Shown here piece after piece: positions 1,863 to 28,172 of a stretch of DNA of 64,000 bases (its first letter is position 1; each line of letters starts with the position of its first letter). Position numbers and translations under genes: made by a program. The DNA is taken from IMG/VR virus record IMGVR_UViG_2061766007_000275; one strand, 5' to 3'. The stretch comes from an uncultured virus (IMG/VR IMGVR_UViG_2061766007_000275). Its lineage: Duplodnaviria > Heunggongvirae > Uroviricota > Caudoviricetes. The notes beneath the pieces were generated by a model that saw nothing but the letters and a program-made list of their open reading frames with translations, was not told where the DNA came from and did not search any database.

Positions 1863-2065
1863 GAGAATGGCGGAAACGCCATTCTCTTTTTTGCTTTTGG
1901 CTCGGCGGGCGCAGCCGGTTCGCCGAGTTTTCAGACAATTCAGACAACTCCGACAATTTCAAAGTCCACTTGGAATTGTCAGACAATTCAGCTAAAATTC
2001 CCAAATAGTCGCAACAGAATTGACCTAAAAAGTGCTTGACATTCTCATTATTTGGGTGTATAATA
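1863..2065 (+). repeat. Intergenic module copy 3 (27-nt hairpin 1901-1927)
   Basis: CTCGGCG/CGCCGAG; TCAGACAAT repeats; AATTGTCAGACAATT palindrome; promoter. Confidence 0.9.
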
Positions 2066-2097
2066 AAGACACAAAGAGAGAAAGAGAGGTACACGGT

Positions 2098-2565
2098 ATG
2101 ATTAAGTATTTAGTGTTTGACATGGATGGCACGATAGCCGACCTGTACGGTGTCAAGAATTGGTTACCAATGCTACGTCAAGAGAATGTAAAGCCTTATG
2201 AGATAGCAAAACCGCTATATGATATGGACACCTTAAATGCCTTGCTTACAGAATTAAAGGTTTTCGGCTATCGAGTAGTAGTAACCACTTGGTTAGCAAA
2301 AGACAGTTCAAAAGCATATAGCAGAGAAGTTGAAAAAGCTAAAAAAGAATGGTTGAACAAATGGGGTTTTCCATATGATAGATTTTATGGTGTTCCATAT
2401 GGTACACCTAAACAAGAAGTAACAAGAGGAAAAGCAGAATATCAAATACTTTTTGATGATAATGATGATGTTCGAGCAAGCTGGGATTTAGGTTATGCGG
2501 TAGACGCTAAAGAAAATATCTTAAAAGTTTTAGCAGACTTGCTGATAGATTTAATAGAGAAATGA
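2098..2565 (+). CDS. HAD-superfamily phosphatase/nucleotidase
   Basis: Motif I VFDMDGTIAD and motif IV LFDD. Confidence 0.85.
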   Translation: MIKYLVFDMDGTIADLYGVKNWLPMLRQENVKPYEIAKPLYDMDTLNALLTELKVFGYRVVVTTWLAKDSSKAYSREVEKAKKEWLNKWGFPYDRFYGVPYGTPKQEVTRGKAEYQILFDDNDDVRASWDLGYAVDAKENILKVLADLLIDLIEK

Positions 2566-3804: not shown

Positions 3805-4095
3805 ATGTTAACACTTGATTTAGTTCCTATAAATGGTATTGCTATATATAGCAATATTGAAACCAAAGAAACTTATATAGAATTGTGGGGAGCAAGCACA
3901 AAACATCCCGATGTAAGTTATTGCTTCTCTAAATATCAAGAGAAATATAATCATTGTAGCTGGTTAGAAAATGTTTCTTTAATATATCAATGGATATTAG
4001 AATGTGCAAGCTTATTATCTATACCATATCATAGTTATGAATTGGCTAGTTTAGCCAATGAAATATATGCAACTTACAGGGGGTGGATAAAATGA
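3805..4095 (+). CDS. hypothetical protein
   Basis: ORF with GGGGT SD. Confidence 0.65.
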   Translation: MLTLDLVPINGIAIYSNIETKETYIELWGASTKHPDVSYCFSKYQEKYNHCSWLENVSLIYQWILECASLLSIPYHSYELASLANEIYATYRGWIK

Positions 4096-4670: not shown

Positions 4671-4984
4671 AGCTTGTAAGGATGAGAGAGATAGTCCTTG
4701 AGAGGTCAAGCAAAAAAAACTTAAAAAAAGTTAAAAAAGTGCTTGACAAACTCAAAAAGATGTGATATAATAAGGATGTAAGGAAAAGAGATAAGCGACT
4801 AAAGAGGTCTGCAAAACTTCCTCTGAAATGAAACCCTTGCAAGGTCATGAAGATACAAAAAGCAGATTAGTCAATGAACCAACCTTACAAAAACATTTTT
4901 CTCAAAGTAACAAACCGCACATTGACAACTTAATAGGGTATCAACCCACAAACAAAAAACAAAAATCAGAAAGAGGTGTATATT

Positions 4985-5380
4985 ATGAAGAACACTATTA
5001 CTAAGTCTACTATTTATACTACTATTAAGTCTTATGTTTCAGAGCACAGTGCCGATTTCTCCGAGGAGATGTATGAAGCTATCATCGACCGCATGGGCAA
5101 GGATATCGAGCTTGCTTCCAAGAAGTCCTCTGGCACTAGCAAGGCACAGCAGGAGAAGGATGCTTTCAACAAGGATATTCAGACTGCTATCCTTAACACT
5201 CTTGCAGACAAGGGAACTATGATTTATGCCGACCTTATCAAGGCGGTACAGGGTACTTTCTCTGACGTAGAACTCTCACCGCAGAAGATTACTGCAAACG
5301 TAACCAAGCTTAAGGGCGAGGTTGAGAAGTTCGAGGACGGCAAGGGCAAGTCCAAGAAGCTTTACATCAAGCTTGCGTGA
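4985..5380 (+). CDS. putative winged-helix DNA-binding protein (paralog of 7195-7584)
   Basis: ILNTL...YADLIKAV...SPQKITANVTKL...LYIKLA pattern; strongly biased codons. Confidence 0.6.
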   Translation: MKNTITKSTIYTTIKSYVSEHSADFSEEMYEAIIDRMGKDIELASKKSSGTSKAQQEKDAFNKDIQTAILNTLADKGTMIYADLIKAVQGTFSDVELSPQKITANVTKLKGEVEKFEDGKGKSKKLYIKLA

Positions 5381-6779: not shown

Positions 6780-6960
6780 AGGTCGCTCTTCGGAGCGACC
6801 TCTCTTTTTTTTGGCTCAGCGTGCGGGGTCGGCACGCTGAGTTTTCTGAATATTCTGAATTGTCTGACAATTTTGCTTCCGCTTGCGAATTGTCTGACAA
6901 TAAAATCAAAAATCCTAAAAAGTCTAACTTGACAAATTGAAAAAATTTTGATATAATGTA
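6780..6960 (+). repeat. Intergenic module copy 7 (27-nt hairpin 6815-6841)
   Basis: CTCAGCGTGC/GCACGCTGAG; AATTGTCTGACAAT twice; TTGACA-17-TATAAT. Confidence 0.9.
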
Positions 6961-7137
6961 TTTACAAGATAAGAGAACGGCACAAACAAAGAAATAAAAA
7001 AAATAAAAAAAGTGCTTGACAAATCTTAAAAAGTATGATATAATAAATACACAAGATGAGGAAAGCACAAAGCACTGAAAAAAATAAATAAAAAAAATAA
7101 AAAAGTGCTTGACAAATTAAAAAAAATGTGTTATAAT
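6929..7137 (+). promoter_or_regulatory. three tandem sigma-A promoters
   Basis: TTGACA-N17-TATAAT with TG extension at 6929, 7016 and 7109; upstream A-tracts. Confidence 0.9.
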
Positions 7138-7194
7138 TATCTTGTAAGAAACAAAGAAAACAAAATAAAAAAATCAAAGAAAGAGGTGCTTGAA

Positions 7195-7584
7195 ATGAGC
7201 GAGAAGAAAATCACAAAGAAAGAAGTTTATGGAGTAGTAGTTGATGTGTTTAATGGCAAGGTATCAGTTGACGAAGTATCGGCTGATATGGTATCAGCAA
7301 TCCTTGACCGCATGAGCAAGGATATTGAACTTGCAAGCAAGTCTGGTGTTAAAAAGGAAACTGATAATGACCGTCTGAATAAGGATATTCAGAACACTAT
7401 TCTTTCTACTCTTGAGGGGCAGGGTACAATGGTATATGCTGACCTTGTAAAAGAGGTACAGGCAGTATACGAGGGTGTTTCTGCACAGAAAGTTACAGCC
7501 AATGTAACAAAAATTAAAGACCTTGTCGAGAAGTTTGAGGACGGAAAAGGCAAGGCAAAGAAGCTCTATATCAAGTTGGCGTGA
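7195..7584 (+). CDS. putative winged-helix DNA-binding protein (paralog of 4985-5380)
   Basis: Near-identical C-terminus EKFEDGKGKAKKLYIKLA. Confidence 0.6.
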   Translation: MSEKKITKKEVYGVVVDVFNGKVSVDEVSADMVSAILDRMSKDIELASKSGVKKETDNDRLNKDIQNTILSTLEGQGTMVYADLVKEVQAVYEGVSAQKVTANVTKIKDLVEKFEDGKGKAKKLYIKLA

Positions 7585-7599
7585 GCCAACTTGACTTCC

Positions 7600-7658
7600 G
7601 GGGCGTGGATTGGTCGGAGCCAAACAGAGACAAATGGGTTCAACTCCCATACGCTCCA
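7600..7658 (+). ncRNA. tRNA-Ala/tmRNA-like mini RNA 1
   Basis: Acceptor GGGGCGT/ACGCTCC-A (G3:U70), T arm ATGGG-TTCAACT-CCCAT, no D or anticodon arm. Confidence 0.6.
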
Positions 7659-7751
7659 TAGAGGTTTCTTCAATGGTGGTAATTCTTTCCTAGCATAAAA
7701 TAAGAATATTCATTGATAACTCGATAACTATGAATACCACCAAATTTTTAA

Positions 7752-7860
7752 GGGGCGTAAATGTCACATCAGGGCAGTGACCAAAGTAAACCGAAAGGTG
7801 ATTATGAAATAGGCATTTTACAAAAGTTGGCTTATTGGGGTTCAATTCCCCTACGCTCCA
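7752..7860 (+). ncRNA. tRNA-Ala/tmRNA-like RNA 2
   Basis: Same acceptor GGGGCGT/ACGCTCC-A, T arm GGGG-TTCAATT-CCCC, three internal hairpins. Confidence 0.6.
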
Positions 7861-8069
7861 GAGGTGACTGGGTTCCACCAATTCAAATGTGCCCAATGTA
7901 CGCGTATGTGACAAATAGGGTTTCTATTCTTCTATTACCCAAAGCAAGAAGAAAGGGGAGAGTATTTTCGTTGTGGTGAAAAACGAGGCTCACTTTGAAC
8001 TCCCCGAGGTTTTCTCGACAGTTTACCTCAAGAAAATCAAAGGTCGGAACCTCTCCGAAACTGTCACAA

Positions 8070-8245
8070 CCCCACAGGTAACTGTGGGGTATTTTTTTAA
8101 CTGGGCGGCGAGGGTCGTGCCGCCCAGCTTGTCGAATTGTCGGAATATTCTGACAATTTCAAAATAGATCAGCAATTTTCAGACTATTTAACCAAAAATC
8201 CCAAAAAGTTAGACTTGACTTTTGGTTACTCTTGTGCTATACTAT
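8070..8245 (+). repeat. Intergenic module copy 8 (27-nt hairpin 8101-8127)
   Basis: CTGGGCGGC/GCCGCCCAG; TCTGACAAT; AAAAATCCCAAAAAGTT; promoter. Confidence 0.9.
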
Positions 8246-8375
8246 ATTTACAAGGTAAGGAGAGAGCAGTAAGCGGTCACCACACAAGAAAAAAAATAAA
8301 AAAAGTGCTTGACAAAACTTTCCACCTATGATATAATAAGTATGTAAGATAAAGAAAGAGAGGTAATCAAAAAAA

Positions 8376-9074
8376 TTGAAGATTGACAGACGGAAACGGT
8401 ATCTAGTAGTCCTAGATACAGAAACTTGCAACACGCCCAAAGATGAGAAAGGGGGTTTAGATGTATCAAGCGGTTTAGTCTATGATATAGGTTGGGCTAT
8501 TATAGACAAATGGGGTACAGTATATCTCACAAGAAGCTTTATTATAAGTGAGATATTCAAAGATGATGTGCTTATGAGTTCTGCTTATTATGCTAAAAAA
8601 ATCCCAAAGTATGAAGAGGATATAAAAGCAGGAACTAGGCAAGTAGTTAACTGGTATCAAGCAATAAATTGCTTGAAAGAAGATATGGCACTGTTCAATA
8701 CAAATATAGTGATAGCACATAATGCGCCTTTTGATTATCGGGTGATGAACAGTACAGAAAGATATCTCACAAAAAGTAAATATCGTTACGCTTTACCTTA
8801 TGGAACAGAAATATGGGATAGCGTGAAGATGGCAACTGATACAATAGGTAAACAGAAAATGTACCGCAAGTTTTGTAAAGAAAATGGTTTTATGACAAAA
8901 CATAAACCGCCTAGAGTAAAAATGACAGCGGAAGTGCTCACAAAATTCTTTAATGATGATGTAGATTATTCGGAAGAGCATACCGCACTCGAAGATGTAC
9001 TAATCGAGAAAGAAATAGTCGCAAGATGTTACAGAACACATAAAGCTATGAGGAAGAAAGCGTGGGGAGATTGA
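8376..9074 (+). CDS. DEDDh 3'-5' exonuclease
   Basis: ExoI VLDTET, ExoII AHNAPFD, ExoIII HTALED. Confidence 0.9.
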   Translation: MKIDRRKRYLVVLDTETCNTPKDEKGGLDVSSGLVYDIGWAIIDKWGTVYLTRSFIISEIFKDDVLMSSAYYAKKIPKYEEDIKAGTRQVVNWYQAINCLKEDMALFNTNIVIAHNAPFDYRVMNSTERYLTKSKYRYALPYGTEIWDSVKMATDTIGKQKMYRKFCKENGFMTKHKPPRVKMTAEVLTKFFNDDVDYSEEHTALEDVLIEKEIVARCYRTHKAMRKKAWGD

Positions 9075-13983: not shown

Positions 13984-14568
13984 CTAGCCCCTTTCTTTTG
14001 CTTTTATCTCAGCTATAATATCATCAAGAGCAACTGGTGTACAATTATGTGCATCCACCTCAACATGATATATTAAACCCTTATCCCAATCAGCCCATGG
14101 GTCAGTCACATGGCGGTGACCGCATAGGTTAATAACTTTGCGGGAAAGCGGTTTCCCCTCATTAAAGTTATCACATATAGTAGGATAATGTGATAAATAA
14201 AAAGTTAATTTATCATATTTCAAAATTATAACACAATCGTTATCATCTCTTGAAATAACATTATATGATTTCATATATTCTTGCCATCTATTATCGCTAT
14301 CGTGATTTCCTCTAATAGGTAAGATATTTCCTTTTAACTGACGAAGATAATTCATACCTTTTTCATCATCCATTAGCATAAGATCACCAAGTACAAAAAC
14401 AATATCTGCGGGATTGACTACTCGGTTCCAATTATCTACAATAGCTCTATTCATTTCTTCAACACTATTAAAACCGCGGGGACCCCAGATAAATTCTCTA
14501 TCATGACATAAGTGCAAGTCAGAAGTAACCCAGATCTTCTTGCCGCAATTTTCTTTATCTATTTTCAT
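13984..14568 (-). CDS. calcineurin-like metallophosphoesterase
   Basis: SDLH, GD, GNHD, H, GHRH motifs. Confidence 0.9.
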   Translation of the reverse strand: MKIDKENCGKKIWVTSDLHLCHDREFIWGPRGFNSVEEMNRAIVDNWNRVVNPADIVFVLGDLMLMDDEKGMNYLRQLKGNILPIRGNHDSDNRWQEYMKSYNVISRDDNDCVIILKYDKLTFYLSHYPTICDNFNEGKPLSRKVINLCGHRHVTDPWADWDKGLIYHVEVDAHNCTPVALDDIIAEIKAKERG

Positions 14569-15114
14569 TCATTTCCTCCTAAATGTTGTTTTACAAACCA
14601 AAGAGATTGACTATCATCTAATTCTTCTGCCATTTTCTCTAATGTATATGTAATAAAATAATTAACATCTTCTACATCAGAAAAATCTTCATTTGTAAAT
14701 ACAATGCCTTTAGCCCAAATTAAATCCGAAGTCTTAAAAGTAACTTTTATACCTACTTTTTCATTGCCAATAGTCCAATAAAAGTTATAATCTGCGGCGA
14801 CCCTTGCCGCTTCCTGTGCTATATATCCTATTAAATTAAGCTCAGTCATTCTCTTCCTCCTTATCTGCTTCGATTACTTTCAAAGTAGCATTAGATATAC
14901 CGACTTCACTAATCCAGTTTTGACAACTAAAACTAAAAGATGTAAAATATTTCTTAGCTTTTGCTTCATCAAGAATAAATAATCTTCCGTATTCTTTAGG
15001 AAGTGGTATACCATTCTTAATCCAAGCTACAAGTCTATACGCATTTTGTATAGGAAACTTGCCACTATTGAGTTCCTCATAACATCCATCCGGCATATTA
15101 ATTATTATATTCAT
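14565..15114 (-). other. two hypothetical genes (14565-14849, 14842-15114)
   Basis: Overlapping ORFs with SDs. Confidence 0.65.
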
Positions 15115-15613
15115 TTATTTTTAACTCCTCTGTTATACTAAAATTATCCATAAGACTAGCGCGGGAAACCTTCCAAATATGATTATATCCTTCTGAAAAT
15201 CTTGGCGGCTGATAAGTTTTCGCCATCGACTGGATAACCTCTTCCGGCACATAGGCTCGCCCGCTCCTCTTCCTATTCTGTCTTAATGCTAAATCAAGAG
15301 AAATATCAAAGTAAATTGCATTTATTTCTGCGGCGTCCGCTATGCAGTTTAATACCTTAGCTCTTGATGCGGGAGTGAGGTGTGTGGCGTCAGCATACAC
15401 ATCTTGTCCTGCCGCAAGTCCTTTTTCAATTTTAGATACAAAATATTTCCACACTTGTTTTTCTTTTGAAAAGTACTCATCATCTTTTTCAAGTAATGCA
15501 AATCTTATTCTATCTCTTGAAACATAAACATGGTTACCTTTTATATTATGTTCACAAAAATATGATTTTCCAGAACCGGGGATACCGCATAATAAAAACA
15601 ATCTACCTTTCAT
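15098..15613 (-). CDS. polynucleotide-kinase-like P-loop kinase (AAA_33)
   Basis: GIPGSGKS Walker A, SRDRIR, DATH, R..R lid, VPEEVI. Confidence 0.85.
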   Translation of the reverse strand: MKGRLFLLCGIPGSGKSYFCEHNIKGNHVYVSRDRIRFALLEKDDEYFSKEKQVWKYFVSKIEKGLAAGQDVYADATHLTPASRAKVLNCIADAAEINAIYFDISLDLALRQNRKRSGRAYVPEEVIQSMAKTYQPPRFSEGYNHIWKVSRASLMDNFSITEELKINEYNN

Positions 15614-15625
15614 TTTTTCCTCCTA

Positions 15626-17245
15626 TTAGTGGATACCATATTCCATATCTTCATAAGCATCATCTGCATTGTCATAGTAACTTGTATGACTAGCATATAT
15701 ATGCTGCGAATAGTAGGTATCTAAAAAAACAGTTAGTTCTTCTTCAAAATCATCTAAAGTAAATATTTTCAGTAAATCATCAAATGTTTCTGCCTTTTGT
15801 ACATCTTCATCATTAGGCTCAATTCTTTTTAAGAACTTTAAAAATTCTTTCTTATCTAATTCAAATTTATATACTTTTCGCTCTGTTCTATAAAGTTTCA
15901 TTTTTTTTACCTCTTTTCTTATTTTCTATATATATTATAACAAAAATTTTATAAAAAATCAAAAAGAGTGCATTACTCTGCACTCTTTCTTGAACCCTTA
16001 AACCATCGAACTAAATCTTCTTTACATTCTAAACACAAATCCAAAGTAATGCTTTCAGGATACGGATGACAATATTTTGTTAAGTCATACCGCCATGCTT
16101 CATTGTTAGCTTTTTGTAAAATTTCATGCCAAGTAAAAGTCTTACCGCATCTATCACAAATTTTTGCATTCATTTGTTTTCCTCTCTTTTCACCTTTTCG
16201 CCCTTTGAGCAATAGTCCCAATCACAAACAGCGTGATTTGCATTTAATCCATAGATATGACCACAAATTGATCTAACATTAGGCAGCATGTCGTCATTTT
16301 TATTCTCATAATACAGATCTAATCTATGAATACAATCTTTACATGTTACTACTTCAGTTTTCATTTTTACACCCCCATAATCCTTTAATATTTAATCGTT
16401 TAGCAATATCTTGCTTATCCTTATCTCTTAAACAATAACTAACATTCCATCTTGCATTACAATATAGACAATTTATAACAAAATCTAGATACGGTAACGT
16501 ATATCCAACATCTTCATACTTTACATCTTCATTTTCATATGAAAATTGACATTTACAATAGTCACATTCATACATATGTACATCGGGATTTTTTAATATT
16601 TTTATCATAATTATTCTCCTACCAATCCAAAATCACAATGTCCAGTTTCATCTTTATGATAATCTGCGGCAGCCGCCTTCTCTTCAGCAATCTTTTTCAT
16701 CCATTCTGCATCAAAATCCCATGTCTGACCTTCAGAGTCAACAGCATAACTCTCAATCCAAGCATTACATACTCTTGGATCCTTCTCAGCTTCCTTCATA
16801 ACTGCTTTAGCTTCATCGAGAGACTCATATTCAACTCCGTCCCACTCATGGTCCCAGAGGTCATGCGGAACCTCTATCTCTACCCATACCTTATGATAAC
16901 TTCTTATTATTGTAGGAAATTTATCCATTATTTTTACCTCTTTTCTTATTTTCTATGTATATTATAACAAAAATATTATAAAAAATCAAAAAGAACGTAT
17001 TATTCTATGTTTTTTTTATTTATACAATTAGCAAACCATTTATAAAATTTTGTTAACCCTTTTCCTATACCCATGCCAATACCTATTAATAATATGGCGG
17101 GCCACCCTACAATAGCTATTGCACAAATAGTTTCATCTCCATCTTGCCAATTTCCCCATTTTATATCTATACAAGCCATAAGCATACCAATTAAAAAACC
17201 AATTATAATATAAATTAAAATAAAAATTTTCATATTATTTCTCAC
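15626..17245 (-). other. cluster of small hypothetical genes, several zinc-ribbon (15626-15901, ~15973-16173, 16170-16364, 16354-16608, 16611-16928, 17000-17245)
   Basis: ORFs with SDs and their own promoters; CxxC motifs. Confidence 0.65.
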
Positions 17246-17676
17246 TTTATATAGACTGTAATATCAACATTAGTATCTTCAAAAACATTAAAAATCAATT
17301 TTTTAACATCTTCCCATTTTAATCTATCAAGTCCACATCCAATTTTAGGCATAACTAATTTAGCATTATTAGATATTTGAAGCTTCATATTTTCAAGAGC
17401 AGACTTCATAGTAAAGATAGTGGGTTTATCATTATAGCTTTCTTTTGTTACAAGATTTATAACTTTTCTTTGGTCATTCATGTATGCGGGAAGGGCATAT
17501 CCGACGCCATCCCACTGTAATATATCATAATGTCCAAGCAAACATTGCTTTACTCCTAGCTTTGTAAATTCTGCGGCAATCCCTTTTCCCATGCGGAAAT
17601 CTGAACTTATACAATGAACATAAATAGGCTCCATTCCCGCAGTAAACAAATCACCTTTAATCTCTTTATAAGTCAT
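17242..17676 (-). CDS. macrodomain ADP-ribosylhydrolase (TARG1/DarG-like subgroup)
   Basis: GDLF, HCIS.D..MGKGIA, NLVTK, MPKIGCGLDRLKW. Confidence 0.9.
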   Translation of the reverse strand: MTYKEIKGDLFTAGMEPIYVHCISSDFRMGKGIAAEFTKLGVKQCLLGHYDILQWDGVGYALPAYMNDQRKVINLVTKESYNDKPTIFTMKSALENMKLQISNNAKLVMPKIGCGLDRLKWEDVKKLIFNVFEDTNVDITVYIK

Positions 17677-17693
17677 TTTTTCTCCTTAACTTT

Positions 17694-17894
17694 TCACATT
17701 TCGCTTTTGCAAATATCTATTAGCCACTCTTCAATAAGATTAAGAGTGTTGTCTTCTTCATCAAAGAAAATATCTCTACCAGTATCATTTACATAATTTG
17801 ATATAAACTGACCAAATCGCCAATCTGGAACATATAGTTTGTGTAATTCACATAACTTTGCGTAAAAAGTATCAAGTCTATCAGGATTTCTCAT
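17694..17894 (-). CDS. conserved phage protein
   Basis: MRNPDR...PDWRFGQ motif typical of small phage proteins. Confidence 0.7.
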   Translation of the reverse strand: MRNPDRLDTFYAKLCELHKLYVPDWRFGQFISNYVNDTGRDIFFDEEDNTLNLIEEWLIDICKSEM

Positions 17895-17969
17895 TTTATT
17901 TTTTCCTTTCTCATTTTCTATAATAATTATAACAAAAATTTTATAAAAAATCAATCAGAGAGATTGAAG

Positions 17970-18530
17970 CTAAGGTTTATACTTTAATCTCTCTGATGCC
18001 TTTTTTAATTTATTAATTATTTTTTGAAATGCTTGTCTGTAATATTCTTTCTTATAAGTTATAATTTTTATATCTTGCCCTTCATCTTTATGTCCTTTTT
18101 CAGTAGCAAAGTATTCAGATTTTGGTTTATTTTTAATTGTTTTCCACACTATTCCTAAATTAGATTGCATACTTTGATATACAACATAATTAGGAACATT
18201 TGTTCCATATGTTAATATTTCTTCAGCTAAATCAATTACATATTGTGGAGTATCGCATTTTCTTATTCTGCGGATAGTGTCATAAGCATATTGACCTCTT
18301 GCATAAATAACATCATGAAGAGTGCTTCCACCCCATCCACCAGCTTTAGCCCGATTAACCGGAACAGCTCCAGTTAAAATAAGACATTGTATATTGTCTT
18401 CTTCTGTTATTCCAGTTGATCCATTCTCTAGCCACATAACATCCGCCAATAAGCGGGTGTCCGCTTCAGTGTGTTCAAAGAATGGAATTGTTAATTTAAG
18501 AGCTAAAAACAATCCAATTAATAACTTCAT
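17970..18530 (-). CDS. SleB-like cell wall hydrolase
   Basis: LLADVMWLE...VPVNR...TLHDVIYARGQY. Confidence 0.7.
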   Translation of the reverse strand: MKLLIGLFLALKLTIPFFEHTEADTRLLADVMWLENGSTGITEEDNIQCLILTGAVPVNRAKAGGWGGSTLHDVIYARGQYAYDTIRRIRKCDTPQYVIDLAEEILTYGTNVPNYVVYQSMQSNLGIVWKTIKNKPKSEYFATEKGHKDEGQDIKIITYKKEYYRQAFQKIINKLKKASERLKYKP

Positions 18531-18814
18531 TTAGTTGGATCAAATACCAAAGTACAGTTAAATGTACTTGTTAAATATATAATATTATCAATTTTAACCT
18601 GAAGCTGTTCTCCCTCATAATCGTTCCACTCTTGAAGTTTTCCTTCTACTATTTCACCAGTAGGCAACTTAACATATGCGTAATTAAATATGTACTGAAA
18701 ATCAAAGAATGTCTTATTTCCACATCCTACACACGTTCCGCTACATCCAACAGAAAACAAAATAAATACAAAACATATTACTAACGCTATAAATCCACAA
18801 ATTTTTTTCTTCAT
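18527..18814 (-). CDS. phage lipoprotein (paralog of 842-1105)
   Basis: Signal peptide with Cys; shared conserved body. Confidence 0.8.
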   Translation of the reverse strand: MKKKICGFIALVICFVFILFSVGCSGTCVGCGNKTFFDFQYIFNYAYVKLPTGEIVEGKLQEWNDYEGEQLQVKIDNIIYLTSTFNCTLVFDPTK

Positions 18815-19014
18815 AATTCCTCCTTAATATTGAATTTCTAATGCTTTATCAATAATATCACCGATTTTATCTAGTTGTTGTAAACACTTTTGTTTGTCTT
18901 CTTCTTTTATCTCCATATGAGTTAAATCACCATATAGCTCTCCAATTATATCTTCTATGTTATGGAGAGCTTCTTTTCTATCAAAAGCTACCCCCATCCA
19001 ACCATAATCGTTAT

Positions 19015-19467
19015 TCATACTATCTCTCCTACAAATATATGAAACTTCTTTGCTATCTTATCTATTTCTTCTGCGGGCTTCGGTACAAAGCCGATACAGG
19101 TCAGAGTTCTTCCAACCCCATTCTCGTCTATTTCTTCCGGCTCTAATTCCGTTCTACAATTATCCTTGATTAAAAAGTAATCAACACCTTCCTTCCAACC
19201 AAGCTCTTCTGCCATTTCAACAGCCTTCATTAACTGATTATGATTTTTAGCCTGAAGAACTATTTTAGTAAAGCTACCATTTATCCATTGTTCAAATAAA
19301 TCTTTATTAATGTAAAAAGTTGTATCATAGATATCATCAAATAATAAACAACTATTCTCTTTTATTTCATTAGTTAAGAAAGCCATTGAAGCATGACTTA
19401 CTTGCGCGGCAAGCTTTCCCGCACTCATCCCCAAATCTTTTCTTGCTATAATTATTTGTTTATACAT
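19015..19467 (-). CDS. pth2: peptidyl-tRNA hydrolase type 2
   Basis: KQIII.RKDL.MS.GKLAAQVSHA, KIVL, D..RTE, TCIG. Confidence 0.9.
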   Translation of the reverse strand: MYKQIIIARKDLGMSAGKLAAQVSHASMAFLTNEIKENSCLLFDDIYDTTFYINKDLFEQWINGSFTKIVLQAKNHNQLMKAVEMAEELGWKEGVDYFLIKDNCRTELEPEEIDENGVGRTLTCIGFVPKPAEEIDKIAKKFHIFVGEIV

Positions 19468-19476
19468 AATATCTCC

Positions 19477-20906
19477 TTATTCTATTATAGGCTGTACTTG
19501 TGCATCTAAATCTAATTTGCAAAGCATCCCGTCTTTCATATATACACAGTTAGCATCACATTGAATAAATTTAGGTTCACCGAGTTTCATTAAAGTACAA
19601 ATACGTATCTCATTTTCACCATAAGGAATTACAGTTTTAAAAATAGTACCAGCTTCAAGATATTTAAATTTAGTAACTTTAATTATCTTATCATCAACCT
19701 TCATATTTTTTCTCCTTTTTTATTTTCTATATATATTATAACAAAAATTTTTCAAAAAATAAAGAGCCGCAAGATATACCTGCGGCTTTTATAATTAAAA
19801 GTGGATTTCAATTTTTCCATCTTTATCAAATAACTTTATAATACCAGTTAGAATTAATTTGATAATCATTCTAACAATAGTAAAAATTAATAGTATACCA
19901 AATATTTGAAAAAATTCTAACTGCGGAAGGTCATAAATGGGTACTACAAAAGTATTCCAAATCCATAAATCAACGCCTGTGCTAATAACTATTAAAACAA
20001 GAATAAGTAAAATACTAAGCAACATAATTTTTCTCCTTATGTTTGAATTGGAGGCTCAGGAAATTCAGCCCAATAAGTCGCGCTTTCTCCATGATATTCA
20101 AATTTCTTGCTTAATGCATTCCATACATCACTAGTTGTAACAAAGTTTTTCTGGCTAGTATCATAATAAACTACTAATAAATATTTATTATGATAATAAT
20201 CTGAAGGAGCATGATACTTTACTTCTTGCCAATCAAGATTATAAAGGCTTTGAACTTTAGTATTACTATAACCAGCTTCCGCCATAAGCTTCTTCCCGCC
20301 AGCTATAATTGTTTCTGCCATTTCATATGACGATAATGAATTCCATTCTTCGGTATCTTCAGGCTGAACTTTTGTAGATACTTCTACAAAATCATCATCA
20401 TCATAATATCTATCTTCATCTTTAGTTCCATAATTAAAAGTTAAAGTAAGTTCACCATATTTACTCATCTTTTATTCTCCTTAATAACTATCATAAAATT
20501 CAATTTCTATATCATCATCAGTAATACCTACATTGTTAATATCCTCAATAAGTTCAGTAACAAGGTAAATTATTTTTGCAGTATTACTTAAACTCTGCTC
20601 CCAACTCCAGATACTTCCACCATTTTCATTCCATTTTCTTTTGCTAAGGAAAGAAATCATTATCTGTTTAATAGTATAAAGATCTGCAATATTTAAAATT
20701 CCGCCATTGCCATCTTCAATTTGCTCAAAAGCATTCATAAATACATTTCTTACATTTGAACACTTTCGCCAATAAGCAAGTTCATAACCACTATCATAAG
20801 TATCAAATTCAAAATTCTGATACTTACTTGCAAAATCTTCAAGAAACTTATCACCCTTATAGCTTTTTGCTCTTACAACTAAACCATTTTCAAGTCCCAT
20901 AATCAT
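19477..20906 (-). other. hypothetical genes (19477-19704, 19795-20025 membrane, 20037-20468, 20481-20906)
   Basis: ORFs with SDs; the last has the common phage MGL...YWRK...FYDSY motif. Confidence 0.65.
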
Positions 20907-21003
20907 TATCCCCTTTCTTATTTTCTATAAATATTATAACAAAAATTTTTAAGAAAATCAATTAAGCAATATTCCGCTAGAGAATTGAATTCTTGGAACT
21001 GCA

Positions 21004-21088
21004 CGCCGCAGGAGAGATTTGAACTCTCAGAGCCTTTCAGCCCAACGCTTTTCAGGAGCGCGCCTCCTCCCCACTAAGGTACCGCGGC
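21004..21088 (-). tRNA. tRNA-Ser(TGA)
   Basis: GCCGCGG/CTGCGGC acceptor, long variable arm, loop CCTGAAA (atypical C33), G73. Confidence 0.75.
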
Positions 21089-21179
21089 TTAAATAAGACA
21101 GGCTAATGCGGGTTGCACACCTTATGTGAGTTGGTCCTCAAGTGTCCCGCATTTAGCAATATTCTCTTCTCTGTCTTAG

Positions 21180-21253
21180 TACTGGCGACTGGATTTGAAC
21201 CAATGACCCCGGCTTTATCAGAGCCGTGCTCTAACCTACTGAGCTACGCCAGT
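21180..21253 (-). tRNA. tRNA-Ile(GAT)
   Basis: Cloverleaf, CGGCT-CTGATAA-AGCCG. Confidence 0.95.
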
Positions 21254-21408
21254 ATGAGGCTTTTTGGGAACTTTCCTATCGTTCTTATACCTTTACGATG
21301 CTCTACGCCAAAGCATCAAGCGGTGTCCCTTTTGCGTATGCTAGATAAAAGCCTTAAAATCCTAGGTTGTAATTATAATAAAAATTATGATGTTTCGCTT
21401 ACAATTTA

Positions 21409-22098
21409 TTATTTGTAATACCTTGTTTTTCTTTCTGAATTTATAAAATCAGCTGCAATATCCTGTTTAGTTTTAAGAGTTTTCTTACTTTCTTCTTTTT
21501 TAATAGCTTCTGCGGCTTCTCCACTCAACCATTTTATAAATTCATCTATTTGTTGATACTGAGTTTTCTTTTTCTCAGAAGGTTCAGGCTCTTCATTGAA
21601 ATTTTTAGCATTAACTTCCTTTAAATCAACATCAGTAGGAAATGCTTTGTAATAAAGTGTATCAAGAGCATCAAATTCTTCATCAAGAATTTTTGTAACT
21701 ATTTTATTAATAGCTACTATTAAAGCTAAAGACTCTTCGGTATTCTTTCTCATTCCATTATTAGGAAGCTGTAAAAAATCATCTAATAATATGGAGTTAT
21801 CACCAATTATATCATATTCATAAACTTCTATACATTGATCAATTTCAAGAAAAGCTGCTTTGTTTATTGCTCTTGCAAATCTTACAAATTCTTTAATAAC
21901 AAAAGCTCCATATCTCTGTTCTGGTGTATATTTCTTTATTTTTGTTATACTTTTTGCAGCATCTATCCAAGTTTCTTGCTGCTGTTCAGTATACTTTGAC
22001 CAAGCATTATAGCCTGCTTTTGAAAAAAGTCCTTTCTTCACTTCATCAACTGTTATTGTATTCAATATTTTATTTACATCTACATTAGAAAACTTCAT
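21409..22098 (-). CDS. hypothetical protein
   Basis: 229-aa ORF with SD and promoter. Confidence 0.8.
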   Translation of the reverse strand: MKFSNVDVNKILNTITVDEVKKGLFSKAGYNAWSKYTEQQQETWIDAAKSITKIKKYTPEQRYGAFVIKEFVRFARAINKAAFLEIDQCIEVYEYDIIGDNSILLDDFLQLPNNGMRKNTEESLALIVAINKIVTKILDEEFDALDTLYYKAFPTDVDLKEVNAKNFNEEPEPSEKKKTQYQQIDEFIKWLSGEAAEAIKKEESKKTLKTKQDIAADFINSERKTRYYK

Positions 22099-22163
22099 TT
22101 TTATTTCTCCTTTTTATTCTTTTTTATTTTCTAAATATATTATACCAAAAATTTTTTATAAAA

Positions 22164-22418
22164 TCAATTATCTTTCATTACTTCAGCTTCTGGTTCATGA
22201 AAATCTGGAGTTTCTATAATCAAATCTATTTTTTTCTGCCTTAAACTATATTCATTCTGGCGGACAAGCCCTTTTTCTCCAGCTAGTTGTGATACAAAAC
22301 ATTCACAAACTGGTATAAGACTCTGAGGGCTTCCCGCAGATCTTATAGATAGCTTTTCTTTTGCGCAAAAGCCTTCATTATAAAATGGGCATTCTTGAAA
22401 CACGCACGTTACTATCAT
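22164..22418 (-). CDS. Cys-rich hypothetical protein
   Basis: C...CPFY..G.C motif. Confidence 0.6.
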   Translation of the reverse strand: MIVTCVFQECPFYNEGFCAKEKLSIRSAGSPQSLIPVCECFVSQLAGEKGLVRQNEYSLRQKKIDLIIETPDFHEPEAEVMKDN

Positions 22419-22647
22419 TTTTCTTCTCCTTCTTACTCCACATAATAAATCCCATTATATTTAATAGAAAATAAACAACATACATAAATATCATAGACCA
22501 ATTTGGAATTTCTAAAATTACAAAATTATAAATAATCCAAGTAATGTTAGATACACACCAAATAATAAAACCAATTCTTAATTTAAAATTTACCAACAGG
22601 TTGCCCAATAGAGCAAACACTGTTGATACTATTGATATTATGTCCAA
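22378..22647 (-). CDS. PnuC-like (nicotinamide riboside transporter-like) membrane protein
   Basis: Hydrophobic; GF..W..SN..W...Y....GF..W pattern. Confidence 0.65.
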   Translation of the reverse strand: MDIISIVSTVFALLGNLLVNFKLRIGFIIWCVSNITWIIYNFVILEIPNWSMIFMYVVYFLLNIMGFIMWSKKEKKNDSNVRVSRMPIL

Positions 22648-23438
22648 ATCTTTTCATAGTCCTCTGCTGTAGACTTACCACTTATCATCTCACATTTATT
22701 ATAAATGCAAGTTGCGGGAAGACCATGCGATGCCAGAGATTTATCTCTATGATAGTGTCCAAAATAATGATGTTGATATTTAACATTATTACATACTTTT
22801 GTTAAAAAGGTAGTTAGTTGATCACCTTCAACGAACCCCATCATTGCAAGTTCAATGTTACTTGCACAATGTGTAATAATATAATCAACTTCAAAATTAT
22901 TGGCTTCAAGGTTCTTCCAAGCTTCCGCATATTCCTCAGCAGATGGCATTTCCTCCTTCCACCATGTTAAATGATTAATACGGAAAGCTTTGCCTTCTTT
23001 CCACCATTCTTTTATTTTCTGGTTTTCATCAGGCTCAAGAATTCCGTCCCAGATATCATGACTTGCAGCCCCGCCCATTGTAAAAAACTTCTTGCCTTCA
23101 ATAGTAAATACCTGTCCCCGCATTAAATGGATAGCTTTACCAATCCGATGAATTTTGCCACCATTCCATTCCTCAACTGGAAAATCGTTCAGCAATTCGT
23201 GATTTTCATGGTTTCCATCTACAAAAAGGACAGTAAAAGGACACTTTTCTAACCATCTTAACTGTTTTTCATATGTTCTAACCTTTTGATTTTTATACCA
23301 AACTAGTCCAAAGTCGCCACAAATGATTAAATAATCATTCTTGCTACAACCCTTCATTGGACCATCTTTAATTGCGTTTAATTTGTTCCACTCTACTTCT
23401 CCATGAATATCCCCTGTAACGAAAATCATCTTAATCAC
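22638..23438 (-). CDS. calcineurin-like metallophosphoesterase
   Basis: GDIHG, GDFG, DGNHEN, TH, FGHYH. Confidence 0.9.
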   Translation of the reverse strand: MIKMIFVTGDIHGEVEWNKLNAIKDGPMKGCSKNDYLIICGDFGLVWYKNQKVRTYEKQLRWLEKCPFTVLFVDGNHENHELLNDFPVEEWNGGKIHRIGKAIHLMRGQVFTIEGKKFFTMGGAASHDIWDGILEPDENQKIKEWWKEGKAFRINHLTWWKEEMPSAEEYAEAWKNLEANNFEVDYIITHCASNIELAMMGFVEGDQLTTFLTKVCNNVKYQHHYFGHYHRDKSLASHGLPATCIYNKCEMISGKSTAEDYEKIWT

Positions 23439-23465
23439 CTTCCTTTTCTCATTTTCTATAATAAT

Positions 23466-23640
23466 TTTATCAAAAATTTTTTAAGGTGTCAAGCGGTTTT
23501 TCTTTTTAGAATAAATCCTTCTTAAAACTGGCTTTGGGCGGACCGCTCACATAGATAATCTCACGTAATTTTAAAATCAAAATAGGCTCCTTAGATTTTT
23601 TTGTCCAAAATTGATTTTTTAAAAAATTTTTGATAAAATT
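23466..23640. promoter_or_regulatory. divergent promoter pair
   Basis: Minus-strand TTGACA...TAAAAT (23492-23466) and plus-strand TTGATT...TAAAAT (23611-23639) at the strand switch. Confidence 0.8.
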
Positions 23641-23668
23641 ATTATAGAAAATGAAAAGGAGAAAAACT

Positions 23669-24442
23669 ATGAAATTATTTTTAGATAAGCAAGCTGAAGG
23701 ATGGGAACCCGCTGGTGATATCTTTAATGATAATAATAGATTTTATAAACCAATGCGAAAAGGCTCTGAAACCAAAAGCTTTAGAGTATTTACTGAAATA
23801 GAGAAAAAAGCTTATGATAAAGCAGATTTGATCCTTACAAACGAGAAAGATAAGTTCTTAAATTATCAGGATAATGAAACAAATCAAGAGATAACTAAAT
23901 GGTGTCTTAATAATGGTTTCAATAGCCAAAGAATAACATTTTGCATCATTGGCAATACTTACTCAATTAAAGATTTACTGAAAGAGGCGGGATGCCGCTT
24001 TCATGAAAAATTAGGCTGGCATTGTTATGAACCATTGAGCTTATCTTCAGCTTATGCTATTGAACCAATATCATTTGATGATGCTTTCGTTTGGGATAAA
24101 GATAAGTCAAAGGCAATACCACGGGAAGCTGTCAAGCGCCTTGAAGCTGTGGTTCCCGCAATTGAATGGGCTGGAGACATTGGAGATACTATTGAAAATC
24201 TCGAAGTAACTTTAGTTAGAAGAACTTCATTTCAAAGTAAATATGGAACAAGTTATATTTATACTTTTTGTACTGATAAAAATGTATTAGTTTGGACAAC
24301 TAAAACATCACTTGATATTGAAGAAGGTCGCAATTTAATTTTATTAAAAGCTAAAATTAAAAATCTTGAAACTTATAAAGATTTAAAACAAACTGTAATT
24401 AAAAATGCATCATTCTCTTTGGCTATACCTATGAAAGTCTAA
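23669..24442 (+). CDS. hypothetical protein, possible C-terminal OB-fold
   Basis: Long ORF; GNTYSIKDLLKEAG.RF motif; beta-rich C-terminus. Confidence 0.7.
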   Translation: MKLFLDKQAEGWEPAGDIFNDNNRFYKPMRKGSETKSFRVFTEIEKKAYDKADLILTNEKDKFLNYQDNETNQEITKWCLNNGFNSQRITFCIIGNTYSIKDLLKEAGCRFHEKLGWHCYEPLSLSSAYAIEPISFDDAFVWDKDKSKAIPREAVKRLEAVVPAIEWAGDIGDTIENLEVTLVRRTSFQSKYGTSYIYTFCTDKNVLVWTTKTSLDIEEGRNLILLKAKIKNLETYKDLKQTVIKNASFSLAIPMKV

Positions 24443-24457
24443 AGATCCGCAATCCTT

Positions 24458-24510
24458 TTGATTTTTTAAAAAATTTTTGTTATAATATTTATAGAAAATG
24501 AGAAAGGGAG
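24458..24510 (+). promoter_or_regulatory. representative of a highly conserved phage promoter TTGATTTT..AAAAATTTTTGTTATAATATTTATAGAAAAT
   Basis: Near-identical copies at 23611, 27792, 29511, 30858, 31258, 33750, 33845, 35391, 37466 (+) and ~13941, 15934, 16961, 17926, 20933, 22140 (-). Confidence 0.9.
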
Positions 24511-24519
24511 TAAAAATTT

Positions 24520-25278
24520 ATGAATTATAATGAACGTCAGGTTCTTGATGCTTTAAACAATCTTGATAAGGTAATAAACGAAGATGAATTATGTGATGAT
24601 TGTTTATGCTGTATTAGCGATGATATATATGATTGTACTAATTATAATGAAGATAATTGCGATATTTGTAGTGGAGCAAGCAAAGTTTGTATCATTCCTA
24701 AAGATGCAGATTATGTTATAAAAATTCCTTATTACTATCTATCAGACGACTCAAGCTCTGGGTTCTATAACTCATATGGTTATTGGGAGCCTAACGAGGA
24801 TGGAGGTAGATGTGAATTGTTTTATAATTATTGCAATCGTGAAGCAAACTTTTATAAAAAAGCTGAAACCGAATATAAAGGTGCTGAATTATTCCTTGCA
24901 AAAACTCAGAGAATTTTTAGAGGTAATGTAATTGAAGGATATGTTCAGGAAAAAGTAACTTGTTATTATGATTATCCTAAGGATAATGATTATGATTATG
25001 ATAAAGATTATGTTTATGATACAATAGAAGAAGATTATCGTAAAACTTCAAAGAATTCTTTAATCGGAGAAGTGCTTGATGATGATTTGTTTTGTGGTAT
25101 TCCTAGTTTTTGGTATAAGAAATTATTAGAATATGCAGTAAAAAATAACGCATTATCAGCAGTTGAAAACTTCTTTAAGTTTTTACTTGATAGTCGTATC
25201 AATGACTTAAATCCTAAAAATATTGGTTTCATCAATGATAAGCCTGTATTAATGGATTATGCTGGTTGGGAATGTTAA
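24520..25278 (+). CDS. protein-kinase-like (PKL) fold enzyme
   Basis: GASK, VIKIP, helix-C E, DLNPKNIG catalytic loop, LMDYAG. Confidence 0.7.
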   Translation: MNYNERQVLDALNNLDKVINEDELCDDCLCCISDDIYDCTNYNEDNCDICSGASKVCIIPKDADYVIKIPYYYLSDDSSSGFYNSYGYWEPNEDGGRCELFYNYCNREANFYKKAETEYKGAELFLAKTQRIFRGNVIEGYVQEKVTCYYDYPKDNDYDYDKDYVYDTIEEDYRKTSKNSLIGEVLDDDLFCGIPSFWYKKLLEYAVKNNALSAVENFFKFLLDSRINDLNPKNIGFINDKPVLMDYAGWEC

Positions 25279-25293
25279 GAAAGGAGAGTAAAG

Positions 25294-25748
25294 ATGGCTA
25301 AAGACAGGGCTATTTTATGTAGATTTTATATTTGTCGTGGGAAGTGTGAAAAAGGTAGAGATGCTAATTATAATGGCTTGTGTCAGCGTTGCCAGCTTTA
25401 TGAAAAAGCTCCGCATAGGAAGCCTTCCCGCACAAATGGCAAAAGAAACAAAGAAAAAGACAAATATATCGAATAAGGAGAATTAATATGGCTTTAATAT
25501 TTAAACAAAAAGGTTTTGGTGAGGTTCCCGCAAATATATTAAAAAATTTTGGTAATGGCTCCTCAATAATTACTATTGTAGAAAAAGGACCTAAGTTTTA
25601 TAGGTTTTATGGTCAAACAGGTGAAATATATTGGAGTTTTGTATATCCACCTAGTCAATATTGTTTAGATATGACTTGTAAAATGTTAAGGTATCCTAAT
25701 TGTATGGAAATTACAGAAGATGAATATAAGAAAGGAAGTGTAGACTAA
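25294..25748 (+). other. two small hypothetical genes (25294-25476 Cys-rich, 25488-25748)
   Basis: ORFs with SDs. Confidence 0.65.
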
Positions 25749-25750
25749 CA

Positions 25751-26962
25751 ATGTTAAATGCAAAAGGAGAGCGTGAATTAGCTTATGCTGTTGGTATTGA
25801 TGCTATTGAACCTATTGTTGGTTCTGACAACTGTGAGTGTGCGGTTGTTAATGGATGGAATATTCTTGTAAAGAAGAATGAATTTAAGCCCGGCGACATT
25901 GCAGTATATTTTGAAATAGATGCTAAAGTAGATCCGGAAAATCCTGCATTTGCTTTTCTTGAGAAGAAGCATTATGCAATAAAGACCCAGAAGTATACCT
26001 TCGGTGGGCGGGGTAATTTTATCTCACAGGGATTAATTATGCGGTTTGCTGACCTTGGTATTGAACCTGTAACTGAAGGAACTTTTTTAACTGAACAGTT
26101 AAAAGTTACTTATTATGTTCCAGAAGATAACAAGCGTAAGGCTGCTAACCCTGAGGATAAGTATAAGAAGATGGCTCAGCGTCATCCAACTATCTTCCGC
26201 AAGGGTTTTGTTAAGTGGCTTATGAAGAGAAATTGGGGTAAGAAATTACTATTCTTAATCTTCGGCAAGAAGAGAGTACCAGATACTGCTTTTCCTACTT
26301 GCTTCCCTTATATTAAGAAAACTGATCAGGAACGTTGCGAAAATATGACTTGGGTTCTTCAGGATAAAACTCCATTTATAGTAACTCAGAAATGTGATGG
26401 AAGTTCAGGTACTTATATTCTTGCAAGAAAGAAAAAGAGAAAGAATAAGTTTGAATTTTATGTATGTAGCCGTAATGTAAGACAGCTTACTCCAGACCAG
26501 AAATCTTTCTATGATGATAATTACTACTGGGAATGTGCTATTAAGTATGATATTGAAGCAAAACTTAAAGATTATCTTGAAAAGCATCCAGAGTTAGATT
26601 ATATTTGCTGGCAAGGTGAAGTATGTTCACCTAGCATTCAAAAAAATCCACACGGGTTAACTGAAACTCATCTATTCTGTTTCCATATGATAGATAGTCA
26701 GCGTGGAAAATATGATATGCGTGATGCTATCAAAATTTGGAAAGAATATGGAATGGAAACTGTCCCTATTGTTAATGAAAATTATATTCTTCCAGATGAT
26801 TTTGAAGCTTTTAAAGATAGTGCAACTGGATTTTATGATGCTAGTGTTTGTGAAGGTAAAACTCAGCAGGCTCGTGAAGGATATGTATATTATAAGACTA
26901 CTGATCCAGCATTTAGTTTTAAAAATGTAAGCCGTGAATATTTATTAGCTCATAATGGATAA
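25751..26962 (+). CDS. RNA ligase (Rnl2/DRB0094-like)
   Basis: Nucleotidyltransferase motifs KCDGSS, SRN, QGE, FCF, EGYV, FKNVS; N-terminal OB-like domain. Confidence 0.9.
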   Translation: MLNAKGERELAYAVGIDAIEPIVGSDNCECAVVNGWNILVKKNEFKPGDIAVYFEIDAKVDPENPAFAFLEKKHYAIKTQKYTFGGRGNFISQGLIMRFADLGIEPVTEGTFLTEQLKVTYYVPEDNKRKAANPEDKYKKMAQRHPTIFRKGFVKWLMKRNWGKKLLFLIFGKKRVPDTAFPTCFPYIKKTDQERCENMTWVLQDKTPFIVTQKCDGSSGTYILARKKKRKNKFEFYVCSRNVRQLTPDQKSFYDDNYYWECAIKYDIEAKLKDYLEKHPELDYICWQGEVCSPSIQKNPHGLTETHLFCFHMIDSQRGKYDMRDAIKIWKEYGMETVPIVNENYILPDDFEAFKDSATGFYDASVCEGKTQQAREGYVYYKTTDPAFSFKNVSREYLLAHNG

Positions 26963-27053
26963 TTTTTTTTGGACAAAATTCTTTCATTTAAGATTTGTAC
27001 TTTTTATATTTAGTAGTAAAATAAAGTACCAATCTAGAATGGAGGAATTTTTA

Positions 27054-27794: not shown

Positions 27795-27851
27795 TTTTTT
27801 AAAAAAATTAGTTTATAATATATATAGAAAATAAAGAAAGGGGAGAAAAAA

Positions 27852-28073: not shown

Positions 28074-28172
28074 AATAGAACTTGAAAAATTAAAAAAATT
28101 TTGTTATAATATTTATGTATTATAATTCTTGCAAAAAACTAAAAACAAAAAAATTAAAGGAGAAAAATTAAA

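Follow-up and report, generated by a model that had tools for sequence, protein, structure and literature searches.

An alanine-type acceptor and T-arm cassette carried by two tRNA-like elements of different design behind an early phage ORF

tmRNAs without a coding sequence are known from the mitochondria of jakobids and from some plastids, with forms of ~65 bp in the plastids of Mallomonadaceae, according to the accessible text of PMC11915505 (Nawrocki et al. 2025). A molecule consisting only of the tRNA-like domain (TLD) is a strong inhibitor of tmRNA in E. coli and may act by titrating SmpB, as reported with reference to Mao et al. 2009 in the accessible portions of PMC4131195 (Hudson et al. 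2014) and PMC11915505. The same portions of these two papers name a single tag-less tmRNA-like RNA of a phage, that of Mycobacterium phage DS6A, and a literature search for a survey of such RNAs in phages found none. tRNA-like structures also occur as t-elements in plant mitochondria, where they are RNase P/Z signals at the ends of mRNAs, as described in the accessible part of PMC1920247.

The locus described here lies in a stretch of 64,000 nucleotides of DNA from an uncultured virus (hereafter, the window), which represents a large phage without a close relative in the phage collection or in IMG/VR. From the sequence alone, two modules with a shared acceptor stem, discriminator A73 and T arm had been proposed at 7600-7658 and 7752-7860, and both are seen there. 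Element 1 is composed of GGGGCGT, an interior of 27 nt, a T arm ATGGG/TTCAACT/CCCAT, ACGCTCC and A. Element 2 is composed of GGGGCGT, an interior of 77 nt, a T arm (T)GGGG/TTCAATT/CCCC(T) made up of four Watson-Crick pairs and a U.U, ACGCTCC and A. The two have in common a 7-bp acceptor stem with G3:U70 and the discriminator A73, which together form the alanine identity set, and a 26-nt direct repeat (D7, 88% identity) covers the T arm and the 3' acceptor strand of both. An anticodon loop and a tag frame are absent from both, and on reading the sequence no frame from either interior was found to reach a stop; the alanine-type acceptor and T arm without anticodon or tag frame are thus confirmed. 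CCA is encoded by neither element, which is unremarkable since the 17 window tRNAs listed in the acceptor/T-arm scan lack it as well. The elements are two different designs built on one acceptor/T-arm cassette. The idea of a tandem pair of one design had to be given up, as element 2 is a separate cloverleaf-like long form within a strain-specific insertion of 256 nt. Coordinates of the features are given in Table 1.

Table 1. Features of the locus and its wider surroundings (positions in the window)
Feature	Position	Strand	Description
Three tandem sigma-70-type promoters	6929-6957, 7016-7044, 7109-7137	+	TTGACA-17-TATAAT with TG, A-rich repeat units
Early ORF, 129 aa	7195-7584	+	ATG 7195 behind AAAGAGGTG
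9-bp hairpin	7572-7593	+	CAAGTTGGC / GCCAACTTG, GTGA loop contains ORF stop codon
Element 1	7600-7658	+	59-nt short-form tRNA top-half mimic; 27-nt weakly structured interior
Strain-specific 256-nt segment	7661-7916	+	spacer hairpin, element 2, 56-nt trailer
Element 2	7752-7860	+	109-nt long-form cloverleaf-like RNA; 77-nt interior
Conserved non-coding RNA stretch	7917-8068	+	between tRNA-like modules and terminator
Intrinsic terminator	8069-8098	+	9-bp stem, 6 GC pairs, T run
Two metallophosphoesterases	13984-14568 and 22638-23438 (-)		
AAA_33 kinase	15098-15613	-	
Macro domain protein	17242-17676	-	
PTH2 peptidyl-tRNA hydrolase	19015-19467	-	
RNA ligase	25751-26962		
DUF2828/DUF7788 'RNA-binding protein'	32164-33738		adjoins tRNA-Glu

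The combined pattern of both elements is expected 0.00 times (100 shuffles of the window), and a script scan of the window for any 7-bp acceptor with a T arm outside real tRNA genes retrieved elements 1 and 2 only. The loose acceptor and T-arm criterion alone gives 0-6 matches per mononucleotide shuffle (30 shuffles); the departure from chance thus lies in the shared Ala-type stem. ARAGORN predicted 20 tRNAs and 0 tmRNA in the window and made no call at 7600-7860, while Rfam at gathering score called tRNAs elsewhere only and neither of the elements. A canonical tRNA, with a 7-nt anticodon loop and an ARAGORN or Rfam tRNA call, was thus found at neither. The acceptor with G3:U70, the discriminator A and the T arm of a tmRNA are present in both; an mRNA-like domain comprising a resume codon, a tag frame and a stop was found in neither, by sequence or by ARAGORN. 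A normal, permuted or two-piece tmRNA was rejected, each element having both acceptor strands, with no tag frame and no Rfam or ARAGORN call; the original prediction had likewise seen no tag ORF. An attP site or a tmRNA 3' fragment was ruled out by the presence of the 5' acceptor strands, and a recent copy of the phage's own tRNA-Ala by the stem (GGGGCTG/CAGTTCC) and T arm of that gene, which differ from those of elements 1 and 2.

A resemblance to the tRNA-like domain of tmRNA had been proposed for both elements; it is supported for element 1 and fails for element 2. With a permissive threshold, the Rfam tmRNA family RF00023 aligned to 7600-7661 with 19.3 bits, the gathering score being 47 (E 1.2e-5 in a 901-nt search), with its interior of 326 positions wholly deleted, and was the best clan match for element 1. 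Element 2 gave a fragment only, at 12.9 bits against the same gathering score. A narrower comparison was made with mini-TLDs from viral metagenomes. A pattern of acceptor, GGATT, T arm, CTCCA and a short interior retrieved 72 IMG/VR loci of 61-80 nt, and ARAGORN called the mini-TLD itself in three of the 38 IMG/VR loci submitted. A covariance model, R1, was constructed from 23 IMG/VR mini-TLD loci, with no window sequence included. Covariation is strong in its fitted alignment (score 0.53, against 0.14 in shuffles), in which 86% of cells are paired, compared with 63% after shuffling. Among 24 loci not used for training, 17 scored 40.9-60.3 bits and seven 27-33 bits, at least four of the latter looking like tRNA-Ala genes; true class members score 39-75 bits and tRNA-Ala genes selected by the pattern 27-33 bits.

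Element 1 is the top R1 match in the 64 kb, with 33.9 bits (E 1.2e-5), the window tRNAs scoring 12-20.5 bits. Element 2 is matched over 7797-7860 only, at 17.1 bits, which is the tRNA background level. DS6A has a sole match in the 61,589 nt searched, at 28478-28557 with 32.3 bits, which is taken to be the published TLD-only RNA. Element 1 therefore matches R1 as well as DS6A does, yet no better than GGATT-containing tRNA-Ala genes, and since such genes score 27-33 bits, its score mostly reflects the acceptor, the T arm and GGAUU. As a TLD-only RNA, defined by acceptor and T arm, a length of ~60-80 nt and a class-model score like that of DS6A, element 1 qualifies and element 2 does not. Members of the mini-TLD class are marked by GGAUUCGAC or GGUUUCGAC, by a capped hairpin that covaries and by GAC ahead of the T arm. 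In element 1, the tmRNA-type D-loop GGAUUCGAC and a closing paired P2 stub were looked for and not found. It reads GGAUUGG, with no linker between the acceptor and GGAUU, and the GGAUU is replaced by GGUAA or GGUAG in its relatives, among which GGUCG and ACAAAU recur. The natural variant G7612A (among the differences listed) disrupts UUGG/CCAA, the sole predicted interior hairpin of element 1, and helix 2 of the class covaries within the class and not in element 1.

Dozens of TLD-only mini-tmRNA genes of 61-80 nt were observed in the course of these searches (L007-L078 from IMG/VR, and L089, L092, L093, L098, L101, L102, L106 and L118), often with an encoded CCA and many of them in tRNA arrays. 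The idea that the class of 78-80 nt represents mini-tmRNAs with only a stop codon was raised by the motif UAA followed by AGCC..., which we take to resemble the 3' side of PK1 in E. coli tmRNA; it was rejected, as DS6A and L076 read GAAAACC at this place. R1 matches in two relatives, G028 and G029, are ordinary tRNA-Ala genes.

Element 2 is more elaborate. Its fold has a z-score of -2.81, with 0 of 200 shuffles as stable, and includes a D-like hairpin (GUCAC/GUGAC, loop AUCAGGGCA), an irregular arm at the position of the anticodon arm, capped by a GAAA tetraloop, and a third hairpin with the loop AUUUUACAAAAGUUG. The statement that both modules lack a canonical D stem and anticodon arm is accordingly to be narrowed, since element 2 has this D-like hairpin; an anticodon loop is indeed lacking in both. 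Homologues of element 2, belonging to two other large phages, were identified in a 100-nt module of the metagenome contig L113 and in L122, which comes from a 178-kb IMG/VR phage with an exonuclease 31% identical to that of the window. The three align together, with the D-like and third arms placed in different registers by MAFFT, and fold alike when the acceptor and T arm are constrained. The order of this long form is acceptor, 4 nt, D-like hairpin, GAAA-capped irregular arm, one or two further hairpins and T arm. The D-like loop of L122 is AUCGGGGUA, and the loop motif ACAAAAGU is common to the further hairpins of element 2 and L122.

In L122, both bases of the acceptor pairs 2, 6 and 7 differ from those of element 2, and position 3:70, G.U in element 2, is A.C, a pair that is isosteric with G.U. 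The D-like stem reads GUCAC/GUGAC in element 2 and GCAGC/GCUGU in L122, and the stem below the GAAA loop reads ACC/GGU, AUC/GAU and GGC/GCU across the long forms. The stems of the long form are supported by these changes, which are compensatory in the acceptor as well as in the D-like and GAAA stems. ARAGORN made no call for the long form in L122 or L113, and Rfam gave no family match to element 2 or to the L113 module. The GAAA arm, lying at the anticodon-arm position, should clash with SmpB.

The locus could also be without an RNA function, as the debris of a decayed or recombined tRNA-Ala or tmRNA, with element 2 serving as the ribosome site and start AAGGGGCGTAAATG of a 72-aa ORF (7761-7979) that begins inside it. 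Such a reading, which is very improbable, draws on the absence of element 2 from related strains, on the likeness of its 5' strand to the Shine-Dalgarno region before the ORF at 6533 (repeat D11) and on the poorly structured interior of element 1. It is at odds with the compensatory changes just described, with the persistence of element 1 in three other samples and with the different stem of the window's tRNA-Ala. The 72-aa ORF has no Pfam match, and its frame is stopped in both L122 and the L113 module; thus, element 2 is not a gene start, and the ORF was rejected as a real gene. The 3' third of this ORF lies in a stretch that is kept by strains without its start.

The surroundings of the elements form a compact unit. 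Each of the three promoters matches 12 of 12 hexamer positions (repeat family D1), and the 129-aa ORF behind them, which has no Pfam or PHROG match, shows 79% nucleotide identity to L113. The hairpin over its stop codon ends 6 nt upstream of element 1 and may protect the 3' end of the mRNA after RNase P cleavage. The strain-specific segment is flanked by TAGAGGTTTCT / TAGGGTTTCT. Folding of 7960-8100 gives a z-score of -3.36, and no Rfam family was found for 7917-8068, a stretch that may constitute an sRNA set free downstream of the tRNA-like module. The 526 nt from 7585 to 8110 are more stable than 100 of 100 shuffles (z -4.33), in agreement with the structured early stretch of the original prediction, which had also called it ORF-free; the 72-aa ORF is present there, though not conserved. 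Palindromic GAATATTCTGA(CAATT) motifs at 6839-6867 and 8134-8158 (D6, I4, I13) flank the unit, recur in L113 and look like operators. A 73-nt A-rich promoter cassette occurs in four copies (6906-7158 and 8286-8358); its depth of 900-1355 in one DNA run suggests that it is common to many rumen phages or copies.

The locus was found in bovine gut runs. In the RNA-library run X5, a contig of 691 nt (depth 74.8) joins 7130-7660 directly to 7917-8077, and its ends agree with the promoter at 7109-7137 and the terminator. The RNA depth is 0 over 8088-8249, where a 1704-nt contig of the DNA run X6, carrying the same 7660 to 7917 joint, continues. A third run, X8, has 7600-7661, then 53 other letters and then 7917-8127. 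Differences from the window are 0 for X8 in 7600-7661 and for X5 in 7917-8077, the two stretches for which a zero count is claimed, and 20 for X5 in 7130-7660. Since X5, X6 and X8 all lack it, 7661-7916 is a genomic indel. The X5 contig supports transcription of the unit without proving it, as DNA can occur in such libraries.

Relatives of the locus were obtained mainly from metagenomes, where a scan for the shared 3' 23-mer gave 35 loci. L113 is syntenic, with 79% identity over 6800-7575 and 71% over 8117-8591. Right after the homologous ORF, and hence syntenic with element 1, it carries a tRNA-like module (3942-4008, minus strand) with the acceptor AGAGAGA/UCUCUCU, in which A3-U70 leaves no alanine identity; its 100-nt module, 1.4 kb further, has the exact acceptor and T arm of the window and lies 9 nt past another ORF and 3 nt ahead of a terminator. 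In L115, L100 and L086, element 1 has a 57-nt counterpart that is 80% identical and is succeeded by an encoded CCA. The L115 copy stands at the end of a GC-richer non-coding unit of ~550 nt driven by a promoter (1920-2466, plus strand); a ROOL/GOLLD-type large RNA ahead of it was considered and rejected, with no Rfam match at E <= 0.01. L090 (2498-2541, minus strand) has a 41-nt minihelix of acceptor and T arm with a 9-nt linker and an encoded CCA, immediately downstream of a tRNA within a tRNA array, and L105 (448-565, minus strand) has two mini-TLDs (GGGGCGT... and GGGGCAT...) back to back, 3 nt apart, as an independent tandem pair.

Other searches added little. In IMG/VR, relatives sought via the upstream ORF gave 39 pattern matches with 0 confirmed, and no element of this kind lies upstream in two exonuclease relatives (L005 and L006, 52% identity). 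Searches of the phage collection gave no relative of the locus; the matches were short, none longer than 154 bases (8% of the query), and all lay outside 7600-7860. A scan of genome contigs for the shared 3' 23-mer gave three matches, in cyanobacterial, Chitinophagaceae and Oceaniferula MAGs, which offered no clue to the host, and found no host tmRNA carrying the shared stem.

As with t-elements, a tRNA-like fold is found here at an mRNA end within a transcript, element 1 beginning 15 nt past the ORF stop codon in a unit bounded by promoter and terminator, and the L113, L115 and L122 modules have the same placement. It is possible, though rather doubtful, that the modules are processing marks acting in cis only, like the t-elements of plant mitochondria, and that the excised mini-RNAs are themselves functionless. 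RNase P/Z would then be recruited to place the early mRNA 3' end behind the hairpin and to release the RNA 7917-8068. The closeness of element 1 to the stop codon and to the 9-bp hairpin is in keeping with such marks, and so is the syntenic L113 module, which keeps the tRNA shape with a different acceptor and A3-U70. The position of the second L113 module between ORF and terminator points the same way, as do the L115 and L122 modules, which close promoter-driven non-coding units just ahead of the next promoter, with no terminator, and the interiors of such modules, which vary from 9 to 77 nt. The part played by t-elements as RNase P/Z signals at mRNA ends (accessible part of PMC1920247) provides a precedent. 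Cleavage would have no need, however, for the CCA encoded by relatives or for the wobble geometry at 3:70 of L122. Moreover, the 62 nt of 7600-7661 are unchanged in the X8 contig, interior included, and the GAAA arm and the ACAAAAGU motif are kept across phages whose exonucleases are 31% identical.

A function of the RNAs themselves is tentatively preferred, at somewhat less than an even chance: both elements would be excised by RNase P/Z, provided with CCA and charged with alanine, and element 1 would be a DS6A-like decoy for SmpB and tmRNA. The two explanations are not mutually exclusive; they correspond to the SmpB, AlaRS or EF-Tu decoy and to the RNase P/Z processing tag of the original prediction and are the leading candidates. 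The structures, their non-random occurrence and their relatives are observed, with weak evidence of transcription, whereas processing, CCA addition, alanylation and SmpB competition are inferred, as follows. Host RNase P would cut at G7600 and G7752, and RNase Z or exonucleases would trim behind A7658 and A7860. The host CCA enzyme would add CCA, as it must for all tRNAs of the phage. The released RNAs could be charged by AlaRS through G3:U70 and A73 and would be unable to decode. Element 1 may compete for SmpB, possibly also for EF-Tu and AlaRS, and competition for SmpB would damp or divert host trans-translation early in infection. Excision would also set the 3' end of the upstream mRNA behind the hairpin and free the downstream RNA.

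The alanylated decoy is suggested by G3:U70, A73 and a canonical T arm in both elements, by RF00023 as the best clan match for element 1 and by the R1 results, in which element 1 ranks first and DS6A scores alike. The encoded CCA after the discriminator in L115, L100, L086 and L090 argues for an acceptor RNA rather than a bare cleavage signal, and L122 retains the wobble geometry at 3:70 while both strands of acceptor pairs 2, 6 and 7 are altered. The agreement of the X5 contig with promoter and terminator and the inhibition of tmRNA by a TLD-only molecule in E. coli (accessible portions of PMC4131195 and PMC11915505) are consistent with it. The same reading is weakened by element 1, which lacks the hallmarks of the class, has a GGAUU that is not kept and scores near the 27-33 bits of tRNA-Ala genes, by element 2, with its arm at the anticodon position and its 17.1 bits, and by A3-U70 in the syntenic L113 module.

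The cloverleaf shape of the long form, unlike a TLD, would also suit a mimic that acts in trans on a target other than SmpB. Such a mimic, which appears quite unlikely, may be a substrate or sink of AlaRS, of EF-Tu or of the CCA enzyme. It could also serve as a non-decoding donor of alanine, or lure away a host factor or defence toxin that binds the acceptor end of tRNAs. The alanine identity set without an anticodon is compatible with this, as are the 20 tRNAs and the phage RNA-maintenance gene set, which spans 13984-33738 of the window (Table 1). No partner gene is linked to such RNAs, and direct evidence for any of these targets was not found; PTH2 and the DUF2828 Ro-like protein, considered as candidates, occur in 1 and 2 of 28 mini-TLD records, respectively, and each in 0 of 10 complete genomes, and the link was rejected. 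In the window, a 116-nt stretch at 34118-34233 (plus strand), directly after tRNA-Tyr, has an Rfam tRNA match of 45.4 bits and no ARAGORN call, and resembles a tRNA into which ~45 nt have been inserted, within or close to the anticodon loop.

A wider proposal may be made, which in its full extent is unlikely. Large phages of a group with genomes of ~180 kb, of which the present cattle-gut phage is a representative, would carry a shuffling, modular family of anticodon-less, alanine-accepting top-half RNAs that act in trans. The family would comprise minihelices of 41-59 nt and cloverleaf forms of ~100-120 nt, in which a GNRA tetraloop replaces the anticodon loop, with the DS6A type as one branch. 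Attached to early transcripts at their ends, then cut out and charged, these RNAs might disable or hijack host ribosome rescue or another pathway that depends on Ala-tRNA, perhaps as a general counter-measure to RNA-cleaving defences alongside the RNA-repair genes of the phages. A narrow pattern by itself recovers dozens of tag-less mini-tmRNA-like genes in viral metagenomes, and the present phage lineage adds to them variants, reduced or cloverleaf-like, that are built into early mRNAs. Should such RNAs be charged and act in trans, they would be a simple RNA tool with which phages tune ribosome rescue or the use of alanyl-tRNA; if they act in cis only, they would be a bacterial-virus counterpart of the tRNA punctuation of organelles.

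Several known systems share some of these properties. T4 rnaC and rnaD (species 1 and 2) are, like the window elements, small stable RNAs of a phage, for which we know of no function. rnaC (4909-5047, minus strand, in L123) terminates in a perfect T arm, CCGGG/TTCGAAT/CCCGG, and a stem that imperfectly resembles an acceptor; R1 gives it 24.2 bits. rnaC and rnaD lie within a tRNA cluster and have no G3:U70, and no sequence homology to the window elements was seen. t-elements are, like the window elements, tRNA-like structures at mRNA ends within transcripts, but are eukaryotic and organellar, and the accessible part of PMC1920247 reports neither an amino-acid identity set nor an encoded CCA for them; RNase P/Z cleavage is putative in the window. 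The CDS-less organellar tmRNAs are equally reduced to the tRNA-like domain and have no tag frame. They are, however, cellular descendants of full tmRNAs that co-occur with SmpB, a descent that is at most putative for the window elements.

The mini-TLD class of IMG/VR and the metagenomes (L007-L078, L089, L092 and others) shares with the window elements the G3:U70 acceptor and the T arm, within 41-80 nt, and includes a tandem pair of its own (L105). Its members, at 39-75 bits, have GGAUUCGAC or GGUUUCGAC, the capped hairpin and GAC, which the window elements lack. The DS6A RNA is, like both elements, encoded by a phage, intergenic and missed by ARAGORN, with a G3:U70 acceptor, a T arm and no message domain, and its R1 score is nearly equal to that of element 1 (32.3 and 33.9 bits). 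Its 80 nt include a D-loop region, and its P2 stem is paired and encloses a CCGCACGCGG hairpin. P2 is missing from element 1, whose D-loop motif is not conserved, and element 2 is cloverleaf-shaped. In contrast to DS6A, the window carries two elements in a single unit linked to an mRNA.
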